Position numbers and translations under genes: made by a program. Of a stretch of 64,000 bases of DNA, positions 11,882 to 54,567 are shown piece after piece. How positions within the stretch are numbered: the stretch's first letter is position 1; each line of letters opens with the position of its first letter. Below the pieces are notes generated by a model. That model was given only the letters and a program-made list of their open reading frames with translations, ran no database searches and had not been told where the DNA came from. The DNA is from a virus, in IMG/VR virus record IMGVR_UViG_3300028027_000047, positions 52,221-116,220 of that record; one strand, given 5' to 3'.

Positions 11882-11908
11882 TCAACTAAAACATGGTATA
11901 ATTTAATT

Positions 11909-12445
11909 ATGAATGAAATAGAGCCAGCGGTTCACTTTGACCGTATGAACAAGGTTGTAGAAGAGCTTTTAAAAGGTAATTCAGCAACTCAAATAGCTAC
12001 ACTTACAGGATTTTCCCGCAAAGAAGTTTTAGAGTATGTAGATGAATGGAAGTCTGTCGTGCATAACGATAGCAATATCCGTGATCGTGCTCGTGAAGCA
12101 ATATCTGGCGCAGACCAGCATTATGCAATGCTAATAAAAGAAGCCTGGAAAACAGTAGAGGATGCCGATACGCAAGGAGCGCTTGCGGTAAAATCTGGCT
12201 CTTTAAAGCTAATAGCCGATATAGAGACTAAAAGAATAGCCATGCTTCAGTCTGTAGGTGTTTTAGAAAACACTCAAATAGCTTCTCAAATTGCAGAGAC
12301 AGAACGCAAGCAGGAAATATTAGTTGGAATATTAAAAGAAGTGACTGCATCTTGTCCTAAATGTAAAATGGATGTTGCAAAAAGGCTCTCTCAAATTACT
12401 GGCATAGTTGAAGCAGTAATAATTGAGGATGCTGATGTCGTTTGA
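11909..12445 (+). CDS. putative terminase small subunit (N-terminal HTH)
   Basis: HTH SATQIATLTGFSRKEV, directly upstream of TerL. Confidence 0.55.
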   Translation: MNEIEPAVHFDRMNKVVEELLKGNSATQIATLTGFSRKEVLEYVDEWKSVVHNDSNIRDRAREAISGADQHYAMLIKEAWKTVEDADTQGALAVKSGSLKLIADIETKRIAMLQSVGVLENTQIASQIAETERKQEILVGILKEVTASCPKCKMDVAKRLSQITGIVEAVIIEDADVV

Positions 12446-30602: not shown

Positions 30603-30799
30603 TGCTTGGTGATTTATGCGAATGGAACGGCTGTGGCAAAAAAGCAACAAGGATAGCAGCTAAGCCAGCAGGAATGATAATAGATATATGTGATGAATGC
30701 TGGCACGAGTATTACAGATCCTAATCAACTAAATGCTATAATAGTCTTATGAGCGGAATACTAGTCCCGCTTAAATAAATAACCTATAGGAGTAAGAAA

Positions 30800-41374: not shown

Positions 41375-41408
41375 TCGTCCGCCTTCCGCCTAACTGTCAA
41401 TTGTACCA

Positions 41409-41451
41409 AAAATAAGAGAGGAGGTCAAGGACCAACGAAGCCCCGACCTCC
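41409..41451 (-). terminator. terminator-like hairpin with anti-leader loop UUCGUUG
   Basis: GGAGGTCGGGGC-TTCGTTG-GTCCTTGACCTCC followed by TCTCTTATTTTT on the minus strand. Confidence 0.65.
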
Positions 41452-41461
41452 ACCCCTGGAA

Positions 41462-41611
41462 TTACTTAGCCTTATTGCTTGGTGTTTCTGCAGTAAATGT
41501 AACGCCCTTGGCTACAGCTTCCGCTAGAGCTACCTTGGCTGCTCCTGAGAAACGACCACGTACACCGACTGTAATGCCTTGCTGCTTTAGATATTCACGC
41601 TTTGTTGTCAT
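41462..41611 (-). CDS. Lsr2-like DNA-binding domain protein (49 aa)
   Basis: MTTKREYLKQQGITVGVRGRFSGAAKVALAEA, RGR AT-hook; read manually. Confidence 0.7.
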   Translation of the reverse strand: MTTKREYLKQQGITVGVRGRFSGAAKVALAEAVAKGVTFTAETPSNKAK

Positions 41612-42149: not shown

Positions 42150-42415
42150 AGTGTACGTGCTCCAATCGCAAATGATAATTGATAAGTTAATTGATACAGT
42201 TCGACTAGCATATCTAGGCGACCTTCACATTCTGTACGGACCATAGAGTCCATTGCCTCTTCTGATATCTCTTCTTGTTCTATTGCACTTGCTAGGTCCT
42301 GCTCAGCAATGAGCATTAGATTCTTTAGTTCTCCGTGCATAATGTCAAGGCCCGATACTCCAGCGTTGACCATACGTTGCAAATGGGGCGGGAGCCCAAT
42401 ATCTTCTGCATTCAT
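42146..42415 (-). CDS. hypothetical early protein
   Basis: AACGAAAGGG leader. Confidence 0.75.
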   Translation of the reverse strand: MNAEDIGLPPHLQRMVNAGVSGLDIMHGELKNLMLIAEQDLASAIEQEEISEEAMDSMVRTECEGRLDMLVELYQLTYQLSFAIGARTL

Positions 42416-42416
42416 T

Positions 42417-42596
42417 TTATACCCTTTCGTTAGTAGAATTCATTATATCAGTAGCCACTGACAATAAATGCCTGGTTGCTTCAATTTGTCCTGGGATATC
42501 AATTACATTGATAGATTCAGGATTCATTTCTAAATCTTGTTCAAGACTAATTAAATGAAGTTTCATATACTCCATAAACTGTGATGACTTAGTCAT
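42417..42596 (-). CDS. small early protein (59 aa)
   Basis: MTKSSQFMEYMKLH, AGGAG RBS; read manually. Confidence 0.55.
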   Translation of the reverse strand: MTKSSQFMEYMKLHLISLEQDLEMNPESINVIDIPGQIEATRHLLSVATDIMNSTNERV

Positions 42597-43051: not shown

Positions 43052-43284
43052 TCTGCGTTCTCATCCCATTGTAGGTAGTAATTATCTGTTGGACTTAAAT
43101 CGTGAAACTGATTGAACCTGCCTTTTAGATAATTGCTGTTAGACATATCGGCAACACACCAATCGGCATATAGTTGCCCTTCATCTAAATTAGAGTTCAT
43201 CCAATCTTCAACGAGTTGTTCTCCAATTTCAGAGAAGATTGCGTCAATCAACATTTCATTTTCATTTTCTAAGAAACTAGACAT
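43048..43284 (-). CDS. acidic early protein
   Basis: 78-aa ORF. Confidence 0.7.
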   Translation of the reverse strand: MSSFLENENEMLIDAIFSEIGEQLVEDWMNSNLDEGQLYADWCVADMSNSNYLKGRFNQFHDLSPTDNYYLQWDENAE

Positions 43285-44068
43285 TTAGTGCCTCTTCCTG
43301 TGTGTAGGTTTTCAAAGGTAATAATACCATATGGGTCTGACATTCTTTCATAGCCACTTCATCCTGCCAAGAGCCCTCATTGCATTCTGAGCAGAATTCA
43401 CCGCAGTCATTCTCGCAATAGTCAATACAATCAAAAGACTGGCAAGCATAGCAACGGTTCTCATATGCCAATAGTTCTTTTACTTCACCACGGACAATCT
43501 CATATTCCCCACCCCAACCTGTTTCTTCCTCAAACTCTAATGTGAGCAGGCAGTTCGGAACAAGATTACTTAGTTTAGTTAAGATAGTTACAGCAGGTGA
43601 CCAAGCAGTCTCATACTTATATACAAGCCAGTTGTCATCACCTTCTGATTTGTATTCAAGTAATTCTGTATTAGAATACTTTTCCTCATCAGATACGGCT
43701 ACATCCCACTTAGTTCCCCAATTAGAGTTATTCCACGAATACCAATCCTTCTGAGTCTTAGCAAACTCAACAGACTTGCGGAACCAATCAGGGTCATTCT
43801 TGATATCTATGTCACCACGATTAGGTTGGCAGGCATATTCTTCATCAGTAATACCTTCATCCTTATATGAGTGGATATTAAAGAAAGCGAATACAGGATT
43901 ATTATATTCAACTAATTTAATTTTGGTGGGGAAACCCATAGATGAAATATCACCCATACCATATGTCTCTTGTGCTAATGTAAATGGAGCATTCAATCTA
44001 TCTTTAATCATATCTACCTCAGACTTAGGTCCTTGGATAGTTAATGTGTTGTAACACCAATTTGGCAT
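43277..44068 (-). CDS. DUF1281/YubB-like (Api92-type ferredoxin-like domain) protein
   Basis: MPNWCYNTL, WYSWN..NWGTKWD, YETAWSP. Confidence 0.8.
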   Translation of the reverse strand: MPNWCYNTLTIQGPKSEVDMIKDRLNAPFTLAQETYGMGDISSMGFPTKIKLVEYNNPVFAFFNIHSYKDEGITDEEYACQPNRGDIDIKNDPDWFRKSVEFAKTQKDWYSWNNSNWGTKWDVAVSDEEKYSNTELLEYKSEGDDNWLVYKYETAWSPAVTILTKLSNLVPNCLLTLEFEEETGWGGEYEIVRGEVKELLAYENRCYACQSFDCIDYCENDCGEFCSECNEGSWQDEVAMKECQTHMVLLPLKTYTQEEALNV

Positions 44069-44181
44069 TTTATATCCTTTCGTTGATATGTTCCAATTAT
44101 ACAATGGACCACTGACATTTGGAATAGATTTTGCCTGTGATACAGGCCACATTATTCAGCTTTGTGGTCAAGATCACAAAT

Positions 44182-44240
44182 TTTCAGGAGTTTTGCTATT
44201 GACCTCGTAAAAGAGATATGTTACCCTCGCCCTTGCGGGC
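44182..44240 (+). repeat. gapped scaffold repeat copy 5
   Basis: CAGG 44185, CGTAA 44206, CCC 44224, GCGGGC 44235. Confidence 0.85.
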
Positions 44241-44400
44241 AAAAAATTCCCCCTAGGCTCAGAGTTGAAGCTGACTAGGGGGTAATGAATATGGCTGCTG
44301 ATTTCCAACGAAAGAAATAAACCGCTTTACTTAGCGCCTGGCCCGTAGACTAGTTAGGCGCACCATTTCATTTCTGTATTAAAACCAGGACCAAGGTCCT
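44241..44400 (-). ncRNA. putative structured small RNA antisense to the shared early-gene leader
   Basis: TGGTATAAT promoter (44415-44407); 5' AGGAC-CUUG-GUCCU hairpin; multi-stem core with loop UUUCGUUG; terminator CCCCUAG...CUAGGGG followed by U6; no ORF in the supplied track. Confidence 0.7.
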
Positions 44401-44407
44401 AGATTAA

Positions 44408-44776
44408 TTATACCACACTTAGTTGACTACAATATTTAGCAACAAATGCCTCAAGGCTTGTACTGAATACTACAGTCTGCAGGTCTTCTTCCATTAATGT
44501 GAAAGTTTTATTCTTCCAATCAATAATAGGGACCTTGTGCTCATTGTCGGCCAATTCATTAACGCTAATTCCCCAGCCTGTTTCGCTAGCCCATTCGTCA
44601 CCAATCATTTGACTAATAGTAATACGTGTTGCATATGCCTCGTCATTCCAACGTGGATGTGCAATCTGCACGGCGTCCGCTAAGTTCTCTAGCATTCGGT
44701 GCCCCGCCCAGTGACCGTATAGAAATACAATATTTTCCTTGGAATCTCTGAATCCAAAGTTTGCTCTGTCGCCCAT
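44408..44776 (-). CDS. hypothetical early protein
   Basis: MGDRANF...LYGHWAG. Confidence 0.75.
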   Translation of the reverse strand: MGDRANFGFRDSKENIVFLYGHWAGHRMLENLADAVQIAHPRWNDEAYATRITISQMIGDEWASETGWGISVNELADNEHKVPIIDWKNKTFTLMEEDLQTVVFSTSLEAFVAKYCSQLSVV

Positions 44777-44777
44777 T

Positions 44778-44966
44778 TTATTCCGCCTTTGTTAGTTGGT
44801 CTTGCTCGTAGTTTAGTAATTGTACCATTTCTTCGGCCCAGTCCACAAGAGATTCGCCCTGTGAATTTTTATGATGTCCACAAAAATAAAGAGACATTGC
44901 ATCTTTCTTTGCTTCCCACATAGCTTGGGCTGCACATTGATCACACTTAAGCCATTCAGCCATCAC
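44778..44966 (-). CDS. small zinc-finger protein
   Basis: CDQC...FCGHH. Confidence 0.7.
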   Translation of the reverse strand: MMAEWLKCDQCAAQAMWEAKKDAMSLYFCGHHKNSQGESLVDWAEEMVQLLNYEQDQLTKAE

Positions 44967-45321: not shown

Positions 45322-45977
45322 TAGTTCTCACGCACATTACATACTTCTTGGTCATTGATTTCAATGTTACCGTTATGTGAATCAGCAAAGATTGCATCTG
45401 TAATTTCTGACTCAAGGTCTAAGTCATAATCGTTTTCAAGAATGTTATATGAATATGTTCCGCTAACTTCAATAGATGCAGACCATTCAACTTCTTTAAT
45501 AAGTTCAATACCAAGCGCCTCAGCGATTTCACGCAATGTGTCTTGGTCTTGTGAGTCTGCATATGCTTCGCAGATAATTTCTTTAGCAGAATCAATCTTG
45601 CTATTTAGAACGCCGACAGTCTTCTGAGATTGGCGTCCATTGTGTAGGTCCCACTCAAGACTTGTAATCTTGTCAGTTGCATATTCTGCATCTGAGAATC
45701 CGCGGATAACTTTGTAGGTTACCAATAGATTAGAGTTATATGACTCAGGGATTTGTGTTGTTGTTGGTTCCATTTTTTCCTCTTTCGTTTGGGTTATAGG
45801 AGCAATTGTAGCATTGACCACTGACACCAAGGTGGTCTTTCGACCACACGGGCACGTGAGTTCTGTCACACCTGATGGAAATCCAAACCCGTCAGATGAT
45901 GTTAATTCAATTAGGCAGTCACATTCATCTGGGTCACAGACAAATGTATATTTACTTGATACTAGTTCGTTGGTCAT
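45321..45977 (-). CDS. early protein with N-terminal zinc ribbon; internal in-frame start at 45773
   Basis: leaderless ATG at 45977 below the promoter at 46001; internal promoter at 45821 plus AACGAAAGAGG leader before ATG at 45773. Confidence 0.7.
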   Translation of the reverse strand: MTNELVSSKYTFVCDPDECDCLIELTSSDGFGFPSGVTELTCPCGRKTTLVSVVNATIAPITQTKEEKMEPTTTQIPESYNSNLLVTYKVIRGFSDAEYATDKITSLEWDLHNGRQSQKTVGVLNSKIDSAKEIICEAYADSQDQDTLREIAEALGIELIKEVEWSASIEVSGTYSYNILENDYDLDLESEITDAIFADSHNGNIEINDQEVCNVREN

Positions 45978-46076: not shown

Positions 46077-46082
46077 GCTTTG

Positions 46083-46156
46083 CGATCTGTAACGGACTTG
46101 AACCGTCGACCTCTACCGTGACAGGGTAGCGCTCTAACCAACTGAGCTAACAGACC
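46083..46156 (-). tRNA. tRNA-Asp(GTC)
   Basis: cloverleaf on the minus strand; CTACC-ctGTCac-GGTAG. Confidence 0.92.
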
Positions 46157-46211: not shown

Positions 46212-47216
46212 TTAGAAAGTTGCAACCATTCGATACAACTTATTTTTTTCTGCGGTTAGAACTGGGTCAAACCCTGATGCACCCGCCATAAGTGTTTCGC
46301 CATTGCCACGACCTGAACGATAATAATCAAGGCGCTCAGTTAGTGCATTGAACGCACCCCACTTTGTTCCCTTGATTGTAGCGTTAGTAGGTGAGTTATG
46401 ATAAAGGTCATCAAGCAGAACAACTTTGTTCTCCCACTTTTTGATTGCACCCTTAGCATCTTTTTCTGGCTTAGGATAGATTGTCTGAATCAACTTAGAG
46501 AATTCAGCATCGGTGATTGCTTGTGAGTAAAGTGCTTTTGCTTGAACTTCGAATTCATCGAAATATCCAAGAGCAAGCCCAAGAGTTTCACGAGCAACTT
46601 GAATACGACCTTCAACAGATTGCGTGTGGCGAATCTTGAAAGATTGCTTAGCATTCTTCATTGCAAGGTTTAGCGTATTTTGGCATACAACACGAACAGG
46701 TGTAACGGCTGCCTGAACAGCAACAGAACCATCGTGTGATGTCCATACGATTAGATATAACTTTGTCTCATCATTGGCGCCTTGTGGGTCAAGAACCATT
46801 GTGCGAGGAATATCAACAGTGCCGAATACAACTTTACCCTTTTTTAATGAGCCAGCAGATTCCCAACGGCAGTCAGCGTTAGCATCGTGAATTGCATCAG
46901 CGAATGCAAATAGTTCCTCATTCTGCACAGGCTTGTAACGCTTGCCAACAGTAGCAAGAACATCAGTTCCGCCGTTGAATGGGTTATCACGAATGACAAG
47001 AGATGCAGTTGAAACATCATTCCAAGATTCTGGAATGTGTTCGGTGATTGGAGATAAGCGAACATTCCAATTTGCTAACTTTGCCTCTTCAAGCATTGTT
47101 GCGGTTGTAACTTCTTCATCTTGTGTGAAGATGCGATTTGCTAGATTGTGCCAAGCAGGTGCGCCACGGAGAGCGAAAGCAACTTCGCCATTTTCCATTT
47201 CTAGATTGTGAGCCAT
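46212..47216 (-). CDS. DUF932/DUF945-family protein
   Basis: MAHNLE..PAWHNL, YKPVQNEE.F, SHDGS, PVRVVCQNTL, IRHT, WGAFNALTE. Confidence 0.88.
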   Translation of the reverse strand: MAHNLEMENGEVAFALRGAPAWHNLANRIFTQDEEVTTATMLEEAKLANWNVRLSPITEHIPESWNDVSTASLVIRDNPFNGGTDVLATVGKRYKPVQNEELFAFADAIHDANADCRWESAGSLKKGKVVFGTVDIPRTMVLDPQGANDETKLYLIVWTSHDGSVAVQAAVTPVRVVCQNTLNLAMKNAKQSFKIRHTQSVEGRIQVARETLGLALGYFDEFEVQAKALYSQAITDAEFSKLIQTIYPKPEKDAKGAIKKWENKVVLLDDLYHNSPTNATIKGTKWGAFNALTERLDYYRSGRGNGETLMAGASGFDPVLTAEKNKLYRMVATF

Positions 47217-47326
47217 ATATTTTTTACCTTTCGTTTGATTAGTTGTAAGTATAACAGGTGGCACTGACATTGTCTAGATTAGATAGTCATTTGTCCGAAT
47301 TGTGCGGTGTGATCATTCTCACAAAC

Positions 47327-47779: not shown

Positions 47780-48202
47780 TTAGAGATAACGAGCAACCGC
47801 TTGATAAGTTGATGTGGAAACTGTTTCCTCATCTGTCATCTTTAGAATACGGATTGCGTTTTCCATCTCCTCTTTCATCTCACGATAAGTGTGCTGATGA
47901 ATTACCTCAAAGTCCTTTTCAGGTTCTGTTGGGAAAGAAGTTTCCTCTGTGATGATGTCAAAATCAACATTGAGTGTCTTGTTCCAAGAGCGATAGTTTG
48001 TGCGAAGGTTCTCTGCTTTTGAGAAATTAGCAATAGCCCACTTGCCGATTTCTTTTTGCCAAGCCTTGTAAGCCTTTTGATACTTTGCTTCGTTTGCTTC
48101 TTGTGCCTGATAGTCTTTAGTTAGTTGTGCTAACTTAGTTTCTAGTGCCTTGATTACCTTTGGTGTTGCGATTTTTACTGAGATTGCTTTTCCTCTAGCC
48201 AT
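47780..48202 (-). CDS. hypothetical early protein
   Basis: 140-aa ORF, CCAACGAAAGAGG leader. Confidence 0.78.
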   Translation of the reverse strand: MARGKAISVKIATPKVIKALETKLAQLTKDYQAQEANEAKYQKAYKAWQKEIGKWAIANFSKAENLRTNYRSWNKTLNVDFDIITEETSFPTEPEKDFEVIHQHTYREMKEEMENAIRILKMTDEETVSTSTYQAVARYL

Positions 48203-48372
48203 TTATTTTCCTCTTTCGTTGGTTGGTTGTTGTTAGTTGTAGTATAGCAGGGGGGTCTGACATTTCCCCCGAAGGGGGGAGAGTTCTTACTTACGACATT
48301 GGACTAGATACTCTCCTAAACTGTCCCTGTTTCGTGGCTTAGCACCCGATTATGGTGTATGCCTCCGTCTTA

Positions 48373-48910: not shown

Positions 48911-49116
48911 TAGTTAGCCACCTTTAGAATTGCGTATGAGCCGTTTTCGTTGATGTGGTCAATTACTGGCTGAATTGCAGATACCAATAAATCTTTTAGC
49001 ATTGACTCTAGCATAGCAATTTGTGATTGTTCATCTAATTGTAAGAATTGTTTTGCGATAGGATGTGTTTCGTCAAACTCGGTTACGAATTTGAGTGAGT
49101 GTTCTACTGATGTCAT
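48910..49116 (-). CDS. hypothetical early protein
   Basis: AACGAAAGG leader. Confidence 0.72.
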   Translation of the reverse strand: MTSVEHSLKFVTEFDETHPIAKQFLQLDEQSQIAMLESMLKDLLVSAIQPVIDHINENGSYAILKVAN

Positions 49117-49216
49117 TTGTTACCTTTCGTTGTTGGATAAGAGTATTATAGCATTGGCCACTGACATTACCTAATCCATTATGGGCGTGTCGCAGCTTTT
49201 GTGATAATACTCACAA

Positions 49217-50199: not shown

Positions 50200-50409
50200 T
50201 TAGTAATCCTCATCCATACCGTGGCCTGCAGACGCTAGGGCGTCAGAATCAGACCAGCCAATAGTTTCAAAGAATTCCATTTCCTCAGACGCATAGCATT
50301 CAGCGCAGATATAATCATCGCCATAAATTTCATATTCTGAATCATTGTCAAAAGTTTCTTGAGCGCCACAAATTTCATAGTTCAAGCAAGATACTGTAAA
50401 TAGTTCCAT
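50200..50409 (-). CDS. acidic zinc-finger early protein
   Basis: C..C...CAEC; DSDALASAGHGMDEDY tail. Confidence 0.72.
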   Translation of the reverse strand: MELFTVSCLNYEICGAQETFDNDSEYEIYGDDYICAECYASEEMEFFETIGWSDSDALASAGHGMDEDY

Positions 50410-50485
50410 AGTGGACCTCTTTCGTTGGTAGATACGGAAATTATAGCAGAATGGACTGACATATCAAAATCGACACGCCGTAAAA

Positions 50486-50692: not shown

Positions 50693-50858
50693 TGTAATTA
50701 CTCGCTTCGTGAAATCTTGCTACATCAAATCGCTCATTATCTTTCGCAAACATTTCAGCGAAATCATTTACGATTTTAGAAAATAAAGCGGGGTGCGTTT
50801 TATCGCTTGCATACTTTAGAATTTCTGCCGTTGCTACATAGTCTTTTCGTGTCATCAT
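50667..50858 (-). CDS. hypothetical early protein
   Basis: MTRKDYVATAEIL...DNERFD..RF. Confidence 0.75.
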   Translation of the reverse strand: MMTRKDYVATAEILKYASDKTHPALFSKIVNDFAEMFAKDNERFDVARFHEASNYNVPKFTSR

Positions 50859-51061
50859 TTTGTTACGACCTTTCGTCCTTCACGATAGAAAACTCGTGTG
50901 TGCATTTTGCCAGTTGGCGTCATTAGATTTACAGTTGAGTATTCGTTAGCAAATCCCCAATCGGTGAAAAGGAAAAAGTTTTCCCACGCACCAAATTCGT
51001 TTTCGTATTCTGCTGACCAATGCGGAGCATTTGAGTCATAAGCGCAAGTCAATTTATACAT
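50855..51061 (-). CDS. hypothetical early protein
   Basis: AACGAAAGGG leader. Confidence 0.72.
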   Translation of the reverse strand: MYKLTCAYDSNAPHWSAEYENEFGAWENFFLFTDWGFANEYSTVNLMTPTGKMHTRVFYREGRKVVTK

Positions 51062-51178
51062 TAGTTTCCCTTTCGTTAGTTACGCATTTACATTGTGTTA
51101 TTTGTATTGTATCAGTTAGCACTGACACAACGGCAAGGGTATCGCAATTATCGCAAATCCACATCCCCGCTATTTGGC

Positions 51179-51474: not shown

Positions 51475-51674
51475 TAGTCACCTACCTTTACCGCTAAATA
51501 ACGATAAGTATCGCTAAAAGAATTAGAGGGGCGAACCTGAACACGATAAGTATCGCAATCGGCATACCAAACCTTAGAGGTTTTTTCTGCGTCAATTATT
51601 TCGCCCTTTACTGAGCGAGAGTAATACATTTTCCCAATAAGTAGGGACTCTACGGAATAAACATTTGCTGACAT
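51474..51674 (-). CDS. hypothetical early protein
   Basis: AACGAAAGG leader. Confidence 0.72.
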   Translation of the reverse strand: MSANVYSVESLLIGKMYYSRSVKGEIIDAEKTSKVWYADCDTYRVQVRPSNSFSDTYRYLAVKVGD

Positions 51675-51793
51675 TAGTTGTCACCTTTCGTTGTTGTTGA
51701 TACGGACATTGTAGCAGATAGCACTGACAAGGCTTCTGCCTTACTTGCTTCACGGGTGGCGGTGATGTGCGCCTTGAATTCATCTAGGTTCAT
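51674..51793 (-). CDS. small early protein (39 aa)
   Basis: MNLDEFKAHI; own promoter at 51843 and AACGAAAGAAGG leader. Confidence 0.55.
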   Translation of the reverse strand: MNLDEFKAHITATREASKAEALSVLSATMSVSTTTKGDN

Positions 51794-51955
51794 TACTGAC
51801 CTTCTTTCGTTGTTGTTATAGTAGACATTATACATTAGGGCACTGACATTTCTCTACCTACTAGCCAGTAAGTCCACATAGTAAGACGCTCAACCTATGT
51901 GATACTCATCACACAAATATGTCCGATATGTCTGTCAAATCGACACGCCGTAGAA

Positions 51956-52685: not shown

Positions 52686-52834
52686 TACATTGAAACCTTT
52701 CGTAGGTGTGCTACTACATTACTAGAAATTGTCTGTAGTTCTTTTACTGTCTTGTTCATTTCTTCTGCGCTAGTAGCGGTGAAATCCACGCCTAGTAGTT
52801 GAGCGCCGTCCCATAGTGAGTAAGTGATAGTCAT
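52685..52834 (-). CDS. small early protein (49 aa)
   Basis: MTITYSLWDG; promoter at 52886 and AACGAAAG leader. Confidence 0.6.
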   Translation of the reverse strand: MTITYSLWDGAQLLGVDFTATSAEEMNKTVKELQTISSNVVAHLRKVSM

Positions 52835-52940
52835 TATCTGTTCTTCTTTCGTTAGTAGTTATAGTAGGAATTGTAGCGTATCGGGCTGACATTATCAACA
52901 CGACACGCCGTAGAGCGGAGAGCCTAGCGTGTGAGTTGCC

Positions 52941-53096
52941 TCACAGGCAGTTGATACACTCGCAACCCTTAGAGCGGATAAGGTAGGCAAGGATTTCCTT
53001 GCGTGTGTAAGCGTTTAGCCCATAAGAGGATTTTACGCCACCATTGTGGAAATCGTGCACGATAGTGCTAAATAGTGTTTCGGTTAGTTGAGTCAT
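52941..53096 (-). CDS. first gene of the early block (51 aa)
   Basis: MTQLTETLFS...CECINCL; promoter at 53148 and AACGAAAGGGG leader. Confidence 0.6.
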   Translation of the reverse strand: MTQLTETLFSTIVHDFHNGGVKSSYGLNAYTRKEILAYLIRSKGCECINCL

Positions 53097-53345
53097 TTTG
53101 ACCCCTTTCGTTTGTTTTTCTTTATACCTTTATCATAGCAGGGGGGACTGACATTTAGAGGTGTTTCTCGGGCGTGTCGCAAATAAATCTTAGAAAAACC
53201 CTGTGAGTTGCGCCACATTCACGCTCATTATGTGCGGTCTATCCTAAATGTCCGAATTTTTCTGTAGTGTGTATCGTACAAGATAAAAATATATTAACAT
53301 TTTTTCAAATTTGAAATAACATTAACCCTGGTATAATTATTTAAT

Positions 53346-54245
53346 ATGGCTACCTATAATAAAGATTTACACCCAGAGATGATGCGCCAACTAGAACCAT
53401 TTGTTGAAGCAGAGATGATTCGTCATGCTTCGATGAGTGAACAATGGTATCCACATGAGTATGTCCCATGGTCGGATGGAGAAAATTTTGATGGTCCATT
53501 AAATGGGAAAGCCTGGGATCAGTCTCAGTCTAAAATATCTAAACTTGTAGCAGATGCAATAATACTAAACCTGGTTACTGAAGATAATTTGCCTCAGTAT
53601 CACGCAGAGCTAGTCTCAAACTTTGGCAGGAATCATCCTTGGAAAAAATGGATTGATAGATGGACTGCTGAGGAGGCCAGGCATAGCATGGCATTGAGAG
53701 ACTATGTTTTAACAACTCGTGCAATTGATCCAAAAAAACTTGAGGACATTAGAATAGCTTTTATGTCAGATAATTTACAGATGCCAATGTTTGCACACGA
53801 TTGGCTACACATGTTGCTATATACATCCATTGAGGAGCTTGCTGCAAGAATATGCCATAGAAATACTGGTTTGGTTTGCGGAGATCCAGTAGGGGATGCT
53901 CTAATGGCTCAGATTGCTAGAGACGAAAATCTACATATGATATTTTATAGAAATGTAGCAAAAAAATGTTTTGAGATAGATCCAGAAGCTACTATAGGGG
54001 CTCTAGCAGATGTTATAACAAACTTTGAGATGCCAAGTGTTAATATGGAGGGGTATAGAGATATAGCTGGCTCAGTTGCAGAAGCTGGTATCTATAATTT
54101 ACCAATACACATGAATGAAGTAGTTGCACCTATGTTAAAATTTTGGAATATCGACAATTTAGATCTATCACAAAACGGACAAATGCATAGAAATAGAATA
54201 AATACCTTTGTTCTTTTAAAAAATAAACAGATAAATAAAAAATAA
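53346..54245 (+). CDS. acyl-ACP desaturase (DesA-type, di-iron ferritin-like)
   Basis: WYPHEYVPW..G, LNLVTEDNLP.YH, WTAEEARH, EELA, IARDENLHMIFYR. Confidence 0.9.
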   Translation: MATYNKDLHPEMMRQLEPFVEAEMIRHASMSEQWYPHEYVPWSDGENFDGPLNGKAWDQSQSKISKLVADAIILNLVTEDNLPQYHAELVSNFGRNHPWKKWIDRWTAEEARHSMALRDYVLTTRAIDPKKLEDIRIAFMSDNLQMPMFAHDWLHMLLYTSIEELAARICHRNTGLVCGDPVGDALMAQIARDENLHMIFYRNVAKKCFEIDPEATIGALADVITNFEMPSVNMEGYRDIAGSVAEAGIYNLPIHMNEVVAPMLKFWNIDNLDLSQNGQMHRNRINTFVLLKNKQINKK

Positions 54246-54567
54246 ATCCTTGACAACGAAAATAGAAATAGTATAATTTTTCTAGGGGGGTCGGGGGGTC
54301 AGTAAATCAATAAATAATAAATATTAAATATATAGTAAGACCTAAGACCTAAGATCAAGTGATAAGTCCAAAAAAATATTTTATTAACATTTTACAATTA
54401 TGTAATATTACAGTCAACTAGAATTATGGTACAATAGATTTATGAAATGTGACTTTTGCGAAAACCCAAAGTATGTAGAGCGTATAAACGCTAAAGGCAT
54501 ACTTGAAAACTTTTGCACACACTGTATTGAAAAATTAATCGGCGGGAATCGAATACGCTAGTCCCTA

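Follow-up and report, generated by a model that had tools for sequence, protein, structure and literature searches.

The CI RNA of the satellite phage P4 pairs with repeated sites in early transcripts, the pRNA of phi29 is a three-way-junction phage RNA with loops that base-pair and belongs to the packaging motor of small protein-primed podoviruses, and in T4 the protein-based silencing of early mRNAs is the work of RegA and RegB. In phages P1 and P7, genes of the phage itself are blocked by c4, a structured phage RNA whose loops pair in the neighbourhood of a ribosome-binding site (PMC12197685). Among actinobacterial sRNAs, B11/6C acts independently of a chaperone and represses genes through loops that pair with many ribosome-binding sites (PMC10470900). 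On the side of the target, Cluster K mycobacteriophages carry SAS, a conserved asymmetric motif that overlaps the ribosome-binding site of many non-structural genes; four genomes have a single copy in the opposite orientation, and whether SAS is bound by RNA or by protein was left open (PMC3203893). In T4, early mRNAs are silenced at their ribosome-binding sites by phage proteins (reviewed in PMC3014915).

The locus described here lies in the window (the whole stretch of DNA analysed, 64 kb), which is the right-hand part of a complete viral record of 116,220 bp with direct terminal repeats. The phage is uncultured, comes from a lake and has a 116-kb genome with a G+C content of ~38%. Its DnaE-type polymerase shares 57% amino acid identity with the enzymes of BillNye-type Streptomyces phages, to which, judged by this protein, the phage appears only distantly related, and a BLAST search of GenBank phages gave no DNA-level match to the region. 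Between 42.4 and 53.2 kb the window holds a block of short minus-strand genes (the early block) with 17 minus-strand TGTCAG-N10-TAnnnT promoters. ARAGORN finds eight tRNA genes in the window; the tRNA-Asp gene (46082-46156, minus strand) lies within the early block and on its strand, and the other seven are on the plus strand.

Within this block, the minus strand encodes a candidate small RNA that resembles c4 in that a loop would pair with ribosome-binding sites of the phage's own genes. c4 differs in that it controls one operon and serves temperate-phage immunity, whereas here a single loop faces 12 dispersed leaders in a phage in which no lysogeny genes were seen; there is no Rfam C4 match, and the junction core of the RNA is without a counterpart in c4. 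In the c4 and CI systems the targets share the transcription unit from which the RNA is processed; the targets considered here lie in 12 units spread over 11 kb. B11/6C, which likewise has no Rfam match here, is host-encoded and folds differently, with two C-rich loops that bind G tracts, whereas the present seed is A/U-rich (three G-C pairs in eight) and would address a phage-specific extension of the Shine-Dalgarno sequence. SAS is a 13-bp motif with an AGGAG core in other phages, and no complementary RNA has been described for it; here there is a candidate RNA partner. phi29 pRNA differs by its role in packaging, by the absence of an Rfam Phage_pRNA match and by the absence of a complement of the seed 8-mer elsewhere within the present RNA. 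Mechanistically, c4 of P1/P7 and B11/6C come closest as precedents; for the tag, the closest genomic precedent is Cluster K SAS. If the pairing is real, this would be, to our knowledge, the first virulent-type phage in which one small RNA addresses a dozen of its own early messages via a tag at the ribosome-binding site. It would be an RNA counterpart of T4 RegA/RegB, with the same logic of a shared feature at the ribosome-binding site and with proteins as effectors there and a candidate RNA here; it would also provide a testable model for the start-associated repeats of actinophages, including a candidate reader of SAS. Whatever the mechanism, the RNA represents an abundant structured family of which lake phages carry hundreds of loci and Rfam has no entry.

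The RNA is bounded by a promoter and a Rho-independent terminator, both predicted and both conserved in relatives. Its features, all on the minus strand, are as follows.

44241..44400, minus strand: whole predicted RNA, ~160 nt, from the predicted +1 to the U6 end (from sequence)
44407..44415, minus strand: predicted extended -10 promoter TGGTATAAT, without the TGTCAG element
44387..44400, minus strand: 5' hairpin H1, AGGAC-CUUG-GUCCU, followed by GGUUUU, a terminator-like site
44363..44371, minus strand: P1, 5' strand, paired with 44285-44294 (covariation)
44334..44361, minus strand: P2 hairpin, including the inner helix P2a (covariation)
44326..44333, minus strand: junction strand J2/3, UAAGUAAA, A-rich, nearly invariant in all lineages
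44297..44325, minus strand: P3 hairpin, carrier of the seed; the stem covaries
44307..44314, minus strand: P3 loop 8-mer CUUUCGUU, complement of the leader; invariant
44285..44294, minus strand: P1, 3' strand, with one bulged A (covariation)
44241..44282, minus strand: intrinsic terminator, an 8-bp G+C-rich stem followed by U6 (from sequence)

An earlier note on this DNA had proposed that the gene has an extended -10 promoter of its own, without TGTCAG, at 44415-44407 (minus strand), and this stands as a predicted sigma-70-type promoter. The 5' hairpin, closing stem, GCGCCU/AGGCGC hairpin, inner hairpin and terminator with U6 that it had drawn all lie where it placed them. P2 pairs GCGCCU with AGGCGC (44361-44356 with 44339-44334), the inner hairpin AUUUC[UUUCGUUG]GAAAU occupies 44318-44301 (minus strand), and the terminator stem is formed by 44282-44275 with 44256-44249, ahead of U6 at 44246-44241. 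The three helices meet in a three-way junction in which J1/2 is U, J2/3 is UAANUAAA and J3/1 is AG; since the flanking base pairs are also invariant, the conserved strings extend to GGUGC, UAAGUAAAGC and AGCAGCC. In the window, P3 can form either an inner helix with an 8-nt loop or an outer helix with a 14-nt loop; covariation favours the outer helix, and several sub-lineages also support an inner one. The length of P3 varies through linked insertions on both strands. The only ORF in the RNA consists of five codons inside P1/P2, which are not conserved in diverse members, and a coding function was rejected.

Flanking-protein searches and pattern scans gave ~265 IMG/VR loci with an RNA of the main type. 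The covariance model R1 scores 170 bits on 44240-44406 and, in loci where BLAST saw nothing, picked up diverged copies in the corresponding place. In an alignment of 84 sequences, fitted to our own structure model, 94.5% of cells were paired, against 79.5% in shuffles and 45-60% when the partners were slid by 1-3 columns. Stem covariation, which the earlier note had suggested testing in homologs, is present: 23 of the 30 pairs change on both sides, and H1, P1, P2, P3 and the terminator all contribute (three of four pairs of H1 in A2; all five modelled terminator pairs among relatives). In P2 the pair types among relatives include G-C, A-U, C-G, U-G and G-U. As a check that did not use the model, an independent MAFFT and RNAalifold run on 18 diverse members recovered P1, P2 and the terminator, together with the base of P3 (G-C/C-G). 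An alternative long-range pairing, proposed by RNAalifold for close relatives only, lacked covariation and was dropped once diverse members were added. The 87-nt core has a mean identity of 89%, compared with 79% for the adjoining coding DNA. Folded as a single sequence, the RNA is no better than shuffles (z = -1.3), and its structure rests on covariation, not energy.

A scan of the whole window at Rfam gathering thresholds returned only tRNAs, and a permissive scan of 44100-44450 returned only chance-level matches (RT-14 at 22.9 vs 48.1 bits, on the opposite strand). None of the Rfam 15 families was matched, C4, 6C, Phage_pRNA, riboswitches and T-box included; the earlier note, too, had not recognised the RNA as a described family. 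A second R1 match in the genome (23 bits) proved to be merely a terminator hairpin. Neither a host nor a chromosomal copy emerged from the bacterial genome collection; all it returned was seven chance matches and three short contigs from MAGs, the latter apparently phage contigs binned into taxonomically unrelated MAGs. These data lend good support to a real, uncatalogued, conserved structured phage RNA family.

Contigs from four freshwater or riverine metatranscriptome runs cover the RNA and both flanks, with no information on ends, strand or level, and fourteen public RNA runs contain part of the stretch. Some of the RNA-library contigs join the upstream gene to the RNA; the contigs are compatible with read-through, a processed 3' product or DNA carry-over. 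The upstream gene (44776-44408, minus strand) encodes a 122-aa protein, and its TAA stop (44410-44408) falls inside TGGTATAAT; this promoter sequence is unchanged in relatives despite a differing C-terminus of the upstream protein (L029, L032, L033, L036, L038). H1 may also terminate the transcript of the upstream gene. The promoter of the RNA is like the TGnTATAAT promoters that precede plus-strand genes; since a TGn extended -10 is shared by most TGTCAG promoters, it is chiefly the upstream element that separates the two classes.

The P3 loop is complementary to a motif, AACGAAAG, that occurs 12 times on the minus strand of the genome and once on the plus strand, the plus-strand copy being the loop of the RNA itself. 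Each of the 12 minus-strand copies has a TGTCAG-N10-TAnnnT promoter upstream of it and an ATG 8-14 nt further on, and no copy in the genome precedes the start of a plus-strand gene; plus-strand genes have other ribosome-binding sites or are leaderless. The complementarity to 12 minus-strand genes, claimed earlier, was thus confirmed by motif scan for 12 of 12 copies:

42424..42431, minus strand: AACGAAAG leader of the gene starting at 42415 (motif scan, duplex scan)
44077..44084, minus strand: AACGAAAG leader of the gene starting at 44068 (duplex -14.4 kcal/mol)
45782..45789, minus strand: AACGAAAG leader of the gene starting at 45773 (motif scan, duplex scan)
47228..47235, minus strand: AACGAAAG leader of the gene starting at 47216 (motif scan)
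48213..48220, minus strand: AACGAAAG leader of the gene starting at 48202 (duplex -17.1 kcal/mol)
49124..49131, minus strand: AACGAAAG leader of the gene starting at 49116 (motif scan, duplex scan)
50419..50426, minus strand: AACGAAAG leader of the gene starting at 50409 (duplex -18.1 kcal/mol)
51070..51077, minus strand: AACGAAAG leader of the gene starting at 51061 (motif scan, duplex scan)
51685..51692, minus strand: AACGAAAG leader of the gene starting at 51674 (motif scan, duplex scan)
51804..51811, minus strand: AACGAAAG leader of the gene starting at 51793 (motif scan, duplex scan)
52846..52853, minus strand: AACGAAAG leader of the gene starting at 52834 (motif scan, duplex scan)
53105..53112, minus strand: AACGAAAG leader of the gene starting at 53096 (motif scan)

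Further details of the same proposal held up as well: the leaders of the genes starting at 50858 and 52685 carry a seven-base variant, ACGAAAG, the leaderless gene at 45977 has CCAACGAA in codons 2-4, and the seed is displayed in a hairpin loop, that of P3. By composition, ~4 plus-strand copies of the 8-mer would be expected, and the single copy is in itself unremarkable; its location in the apical loop of the sole conserved structured RNA found here, together with its conservation, is not chance. When the 14-nt loop was scanned against the whole phage genome (77,460 scan windows), six early leaders came top after the complementary strand of the RNA gene, with duplexes of -18.1 to -14.4 kcal/mol against a mean of -4.25 (sd 2.1) over all scan windows. 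Ten of the 12 leaders were among the top 20, in line with the prediction that early leaders would rank first, a ranking that is partly built in by the 8-mer match. Pairing reaches 11-13 bp on several leaders. A putative second anti-leader hairpin at 41409-41460 was rejected: it has just a 7-mer, present in 10 copies per strand in the genome, and is put down to chance. The terminator hairpin that follows a 49-aa ORF at this same place (41395-41470, minus strand) has CUUCGUUGG near its loop, and its likeness to the seed is regarded as chance.

Conservation of the loop was surveyed by a scan of the collection in which only the junction was fixed and P3 was left free. This returned 53 distinct P3 segments, ~48 of which have CUUUCGUU in the apical part of the hairpin on stems of differing sequence, and the information content of the loop peaks over the eight seed positions and falls at the flanks. 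In 774 leaders the conserved block covers the same eight positions, again with variable flanks, in a logo that is anchored on the motif and therefore partly circular. Among the 908 distinct units downstream of promoters in the main lineage, 493 (54%) have the exact 8-mer. It follows 12 of the 17 promoters here, as against none of 14 and none of four TGTCAG units in the sister lineages B and C, respectively. The leader motif is most uniform where the loop exists, and the data are still compatible with an anti-leader address gained specifically in this lineage.

As the best reading, we tentatively propose that in this lineage the RNA keeps ribosomes off early mRNAs as an anti-leader sRNA, a possibility to which we give appreciable weight. 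A stand-alone RNA of ~160 nt would be transcribed on the minus strand from the extended -10 promoter, ended by the intrinsic terminator and folded into the 5' hairpin and the three-way junction, with the apical loop of P3 displaying CUUUCGUU. This loop would base-pair with the AACGAAAG copies of the 12 early mRNAs, whose 5' leaders are short and CA-rich and in which the motif overlaps the Shine-Dalgarno sequence (GAAAGG), and would thereby compete with the 3' tail of 16S rRNA. Translation of the tagged early genes would be lowered as a set, and their mRNAs possibly exposed to decay. The anatomy of the gene, its conservation, its covarying structure and the complementarity are observed; discrete transcription, pairing in vivo, repression and timing are inferred, and the name 'early-to-late switch' that the earlier note gave to the RNA is likewise a matter of inference only. 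In common with the sRNA class, there is a conserved seed that is complementary to several translation-initiation regions, those of the 12 leaders. Several points count against the sRNA reading: the seed is A/U-rich and, in the single-sequence ensemble, unpaired only in part; conservation of the junction equals that of the seed, an unusual trait in an sRNA that simply base-pairs; and the complement is Shine-Dalgarno-like, so that a pyrimidine-rich loop matches ribosome-binding sites fairly easily.

Scans with a free loop also returned sister lineages whose RNAs sit inside TGTCAG-type early regions and have full sigma-70-type promoters. They share the junction core GGUGC / UAANUAAAGC / AGCAGCC, are matched by R1 at 19-33 bits, and have P1, P2 and P3 strands that are all complementary.

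Lineage B, 8 loci: P3 loop CCUNGAAAW; full sigma-70 promoter; P1 followed directly by the U run
Lineage C, 3 loci: G-rich 11-nt loop; RNA directly 5' of an 83-aa ORF, without a separate terminator hairpin
Lineage D, 2 loci: P3 reduced to 4 bp and a tetraloop
Possible lineage E, L262 and L309: less certain

A complete 104.8-kb genome of lineage B contains AACGAAAG once. Most TGTCAG promoters of this lineage (L292, L258) have a start codon 6-8 nt after the -10 element (TAGAGT or TATAGT); both spacing and element differ from those in the window, and the early genes of the lineage appear from this spacing to be mostly leaderless. Lineage C has mostly AGAAAGG-type leaders, with three or four that read AACGAAAGG; lineage D has AAAGAAAG-type leaders and three AACGAAAG copies in 18.7 kb. 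In lineage C (L282:4387-4730, reverse strand of the locus, and L293:7208-7550), the core lies immediately before an 83-aa ORF in front of which no Shine-Dalgarno sequence is visible. Next after this ORF comes a homolog (38% amino acid identity) of the 122-aa gene that in the window lies upstream of the RNA. The 122-aa protein belongs to PHROG family phrog_31860 (function unknown) and has no Pfam family and no named look-alike in the protein atlas. The RNA and this protein family are loosely linked; the protein was considered as a partner of the RNA, which it adjoins in the main lineage and lies near in lineage C, and this is insufficient for a claim.

In the main lineage, loop and leader are both invariant, and between lineages there is no co-variation of the two. 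The co-variation of loop and leader in relatives that the earlier note had expected was not found in lineages B, C and D, nor is there seed-target co-variation across relatives of the kind expected of the sRNA class; of its proposal that the sRNA silences the early regulon, the conserved RNA gene, the seed in the loop and the early leaders as best duplex partners stand, and the lineage co-variation does not. No repeated complement to the loops of lineages B, C and E was found in the loci examined. The loop base next to the seed (U, C or A) does not consistently track the next base of the leader, and the trend is weak: loops with A at this position face leaders with G or A, never U. A loop variant in L033, with one U to A change in the 8-mer, has no compensating leaders. 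Lineages C and D keep three or four AACGAAAG leaders alongside other loops, which makes the leader independent of the loop. The same core is found with P3 loops that are unrelated or absent, so the core is older than the seed and must have a function that does not need the seed. Anti-leader silencing therefore cannot be the sole job of the RNA family, and the core very probably has a further role, such as contact with a protein or ligand or stability of the RNA. This family-level view, comprising the sister lineages and the failed between-lineage co-variation, is new.

The same observations bear on the possibility that the main job of the RNA resides in the three-way junction, as a binding site for a protein (of phage or host) or a small ligand, or as a decoy, with P3 peripheral and the leader match secondary or derived from the 16S/Shine-Dalgarno relationship. 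We regard this as a serious contender, if not a probable one. It accounts for the retention of the core strings and of the P1, P2 and P3 pairs in lineages B, C and D despite their P3 loops, for AACGAAAG leaders that occur without the loop, and for loops of other lineages without found targets, and the invariance of the junction suggests a specific molecular partner. It does not account for the constancy of the 8-mer in ~48 distinct P3 variants whose stems differ, nor for the invariant blocks of loop and leader ending at nearly the same point; moreover, there is no known partner, and the neighbouring 122-aa protein is without a recognisable family. More boldly, the phage RNA family may consist of a fixed three-way-junction scaffold with an exchangeable 'address' loop; in the dominant freshwater lineage the address would be the ribosome-binding tag common to the early genes, by which one RNA would silence a temporal class of messages, an idea that we hold to be less likely than not.

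A cis-acting leader or attenuator, riboswitch-like and controlling read-through into the next gene, would fit the order of promoter, structured domain, terminator and gene. It would also fit lineage C, where the RNA abuts the 83-aa ORF without a terminator of its own, and lineage B, where P1 runs directly into a U run. Against this, the terminator of the main lineage is separated from the next gene by ~170 nt, by a repeated intergenic element and by a separate TGTCAG promoter with its leader; no conserved antiterminator pairing was seen by eye, no Rfam riboswitch matched, and the downstream genes vary among lineages. We consider such a role improbable.

Little probability attaches, too, to a general mimic of the 16S rRNA tail, whose loop would bind Shine-Dalgarno sequences of the GAAAGG type at large, also in host mRNAs, and would damp or redirect translation instead of addressing the early regulon. 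The usual 3' tail of 16S rRNA is CCUCCUUUCU, many loop variants read UCCUUUCG, which resembles it, and the core of the leader is a Shine-Dalgarno sequence. The invariant block, however, continues into GUU, whose partner AAC lies upstream of the Shine-Dalgarno sequence and beyond the reach of 16S rRNA, and in the plus-strand genes of the phage the ribosome-binding sites are of other kinds or absent. That the RNA has no function at all, as might be read from the likeness of H1 and GGUUUU to a weak terminator, the RNA-library contigs that bridge the upstream gene and the RNA region, and the single-sequence z of -1.3, is very improbable in view of three helices that covary strongly, a promoter-like element that is conserved, a degree of conservation in excess of the coding flanks, and homologs beside different neighbouring genes.

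The surroundings of the anti-leader sRNA candidate have features of their own. Directly 3' of its terminator, at 44130-44240 (minus strand), lies a conserved intergenic element (GCCC hairpin, GAGGGTA, TTTACG, CCTG). Two CRP-like TGTGA-N6-TCACA palindromes with one mismatch each come after it, ahead of the next gene's TGTCAG promoter. That gene (43277-44068, minus strand) encodes a DUF1281_C ferredoxin-like domain (Api92-like, E = 8e-7), and upstream of the 122-aa gene a 62-aa gene (44778-44966, minus strand) encodes DUF7455. On the plus strand, TGnTATAAT or TGGTACAAT promoters are found at 11894-11911, 30734-30751, 53329-53348 and 54414-54445 with an ATG 6-8 nt downstream, a spacing that suggests leaderless mRNAs for several plus-strand genes. 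A TCAACTA motif precedes three of these promoters and the promoter of the RNA at a spacing of 8-12 nt; in the latter case it falls in coding sequence and is conserved in some, not all, relatives.
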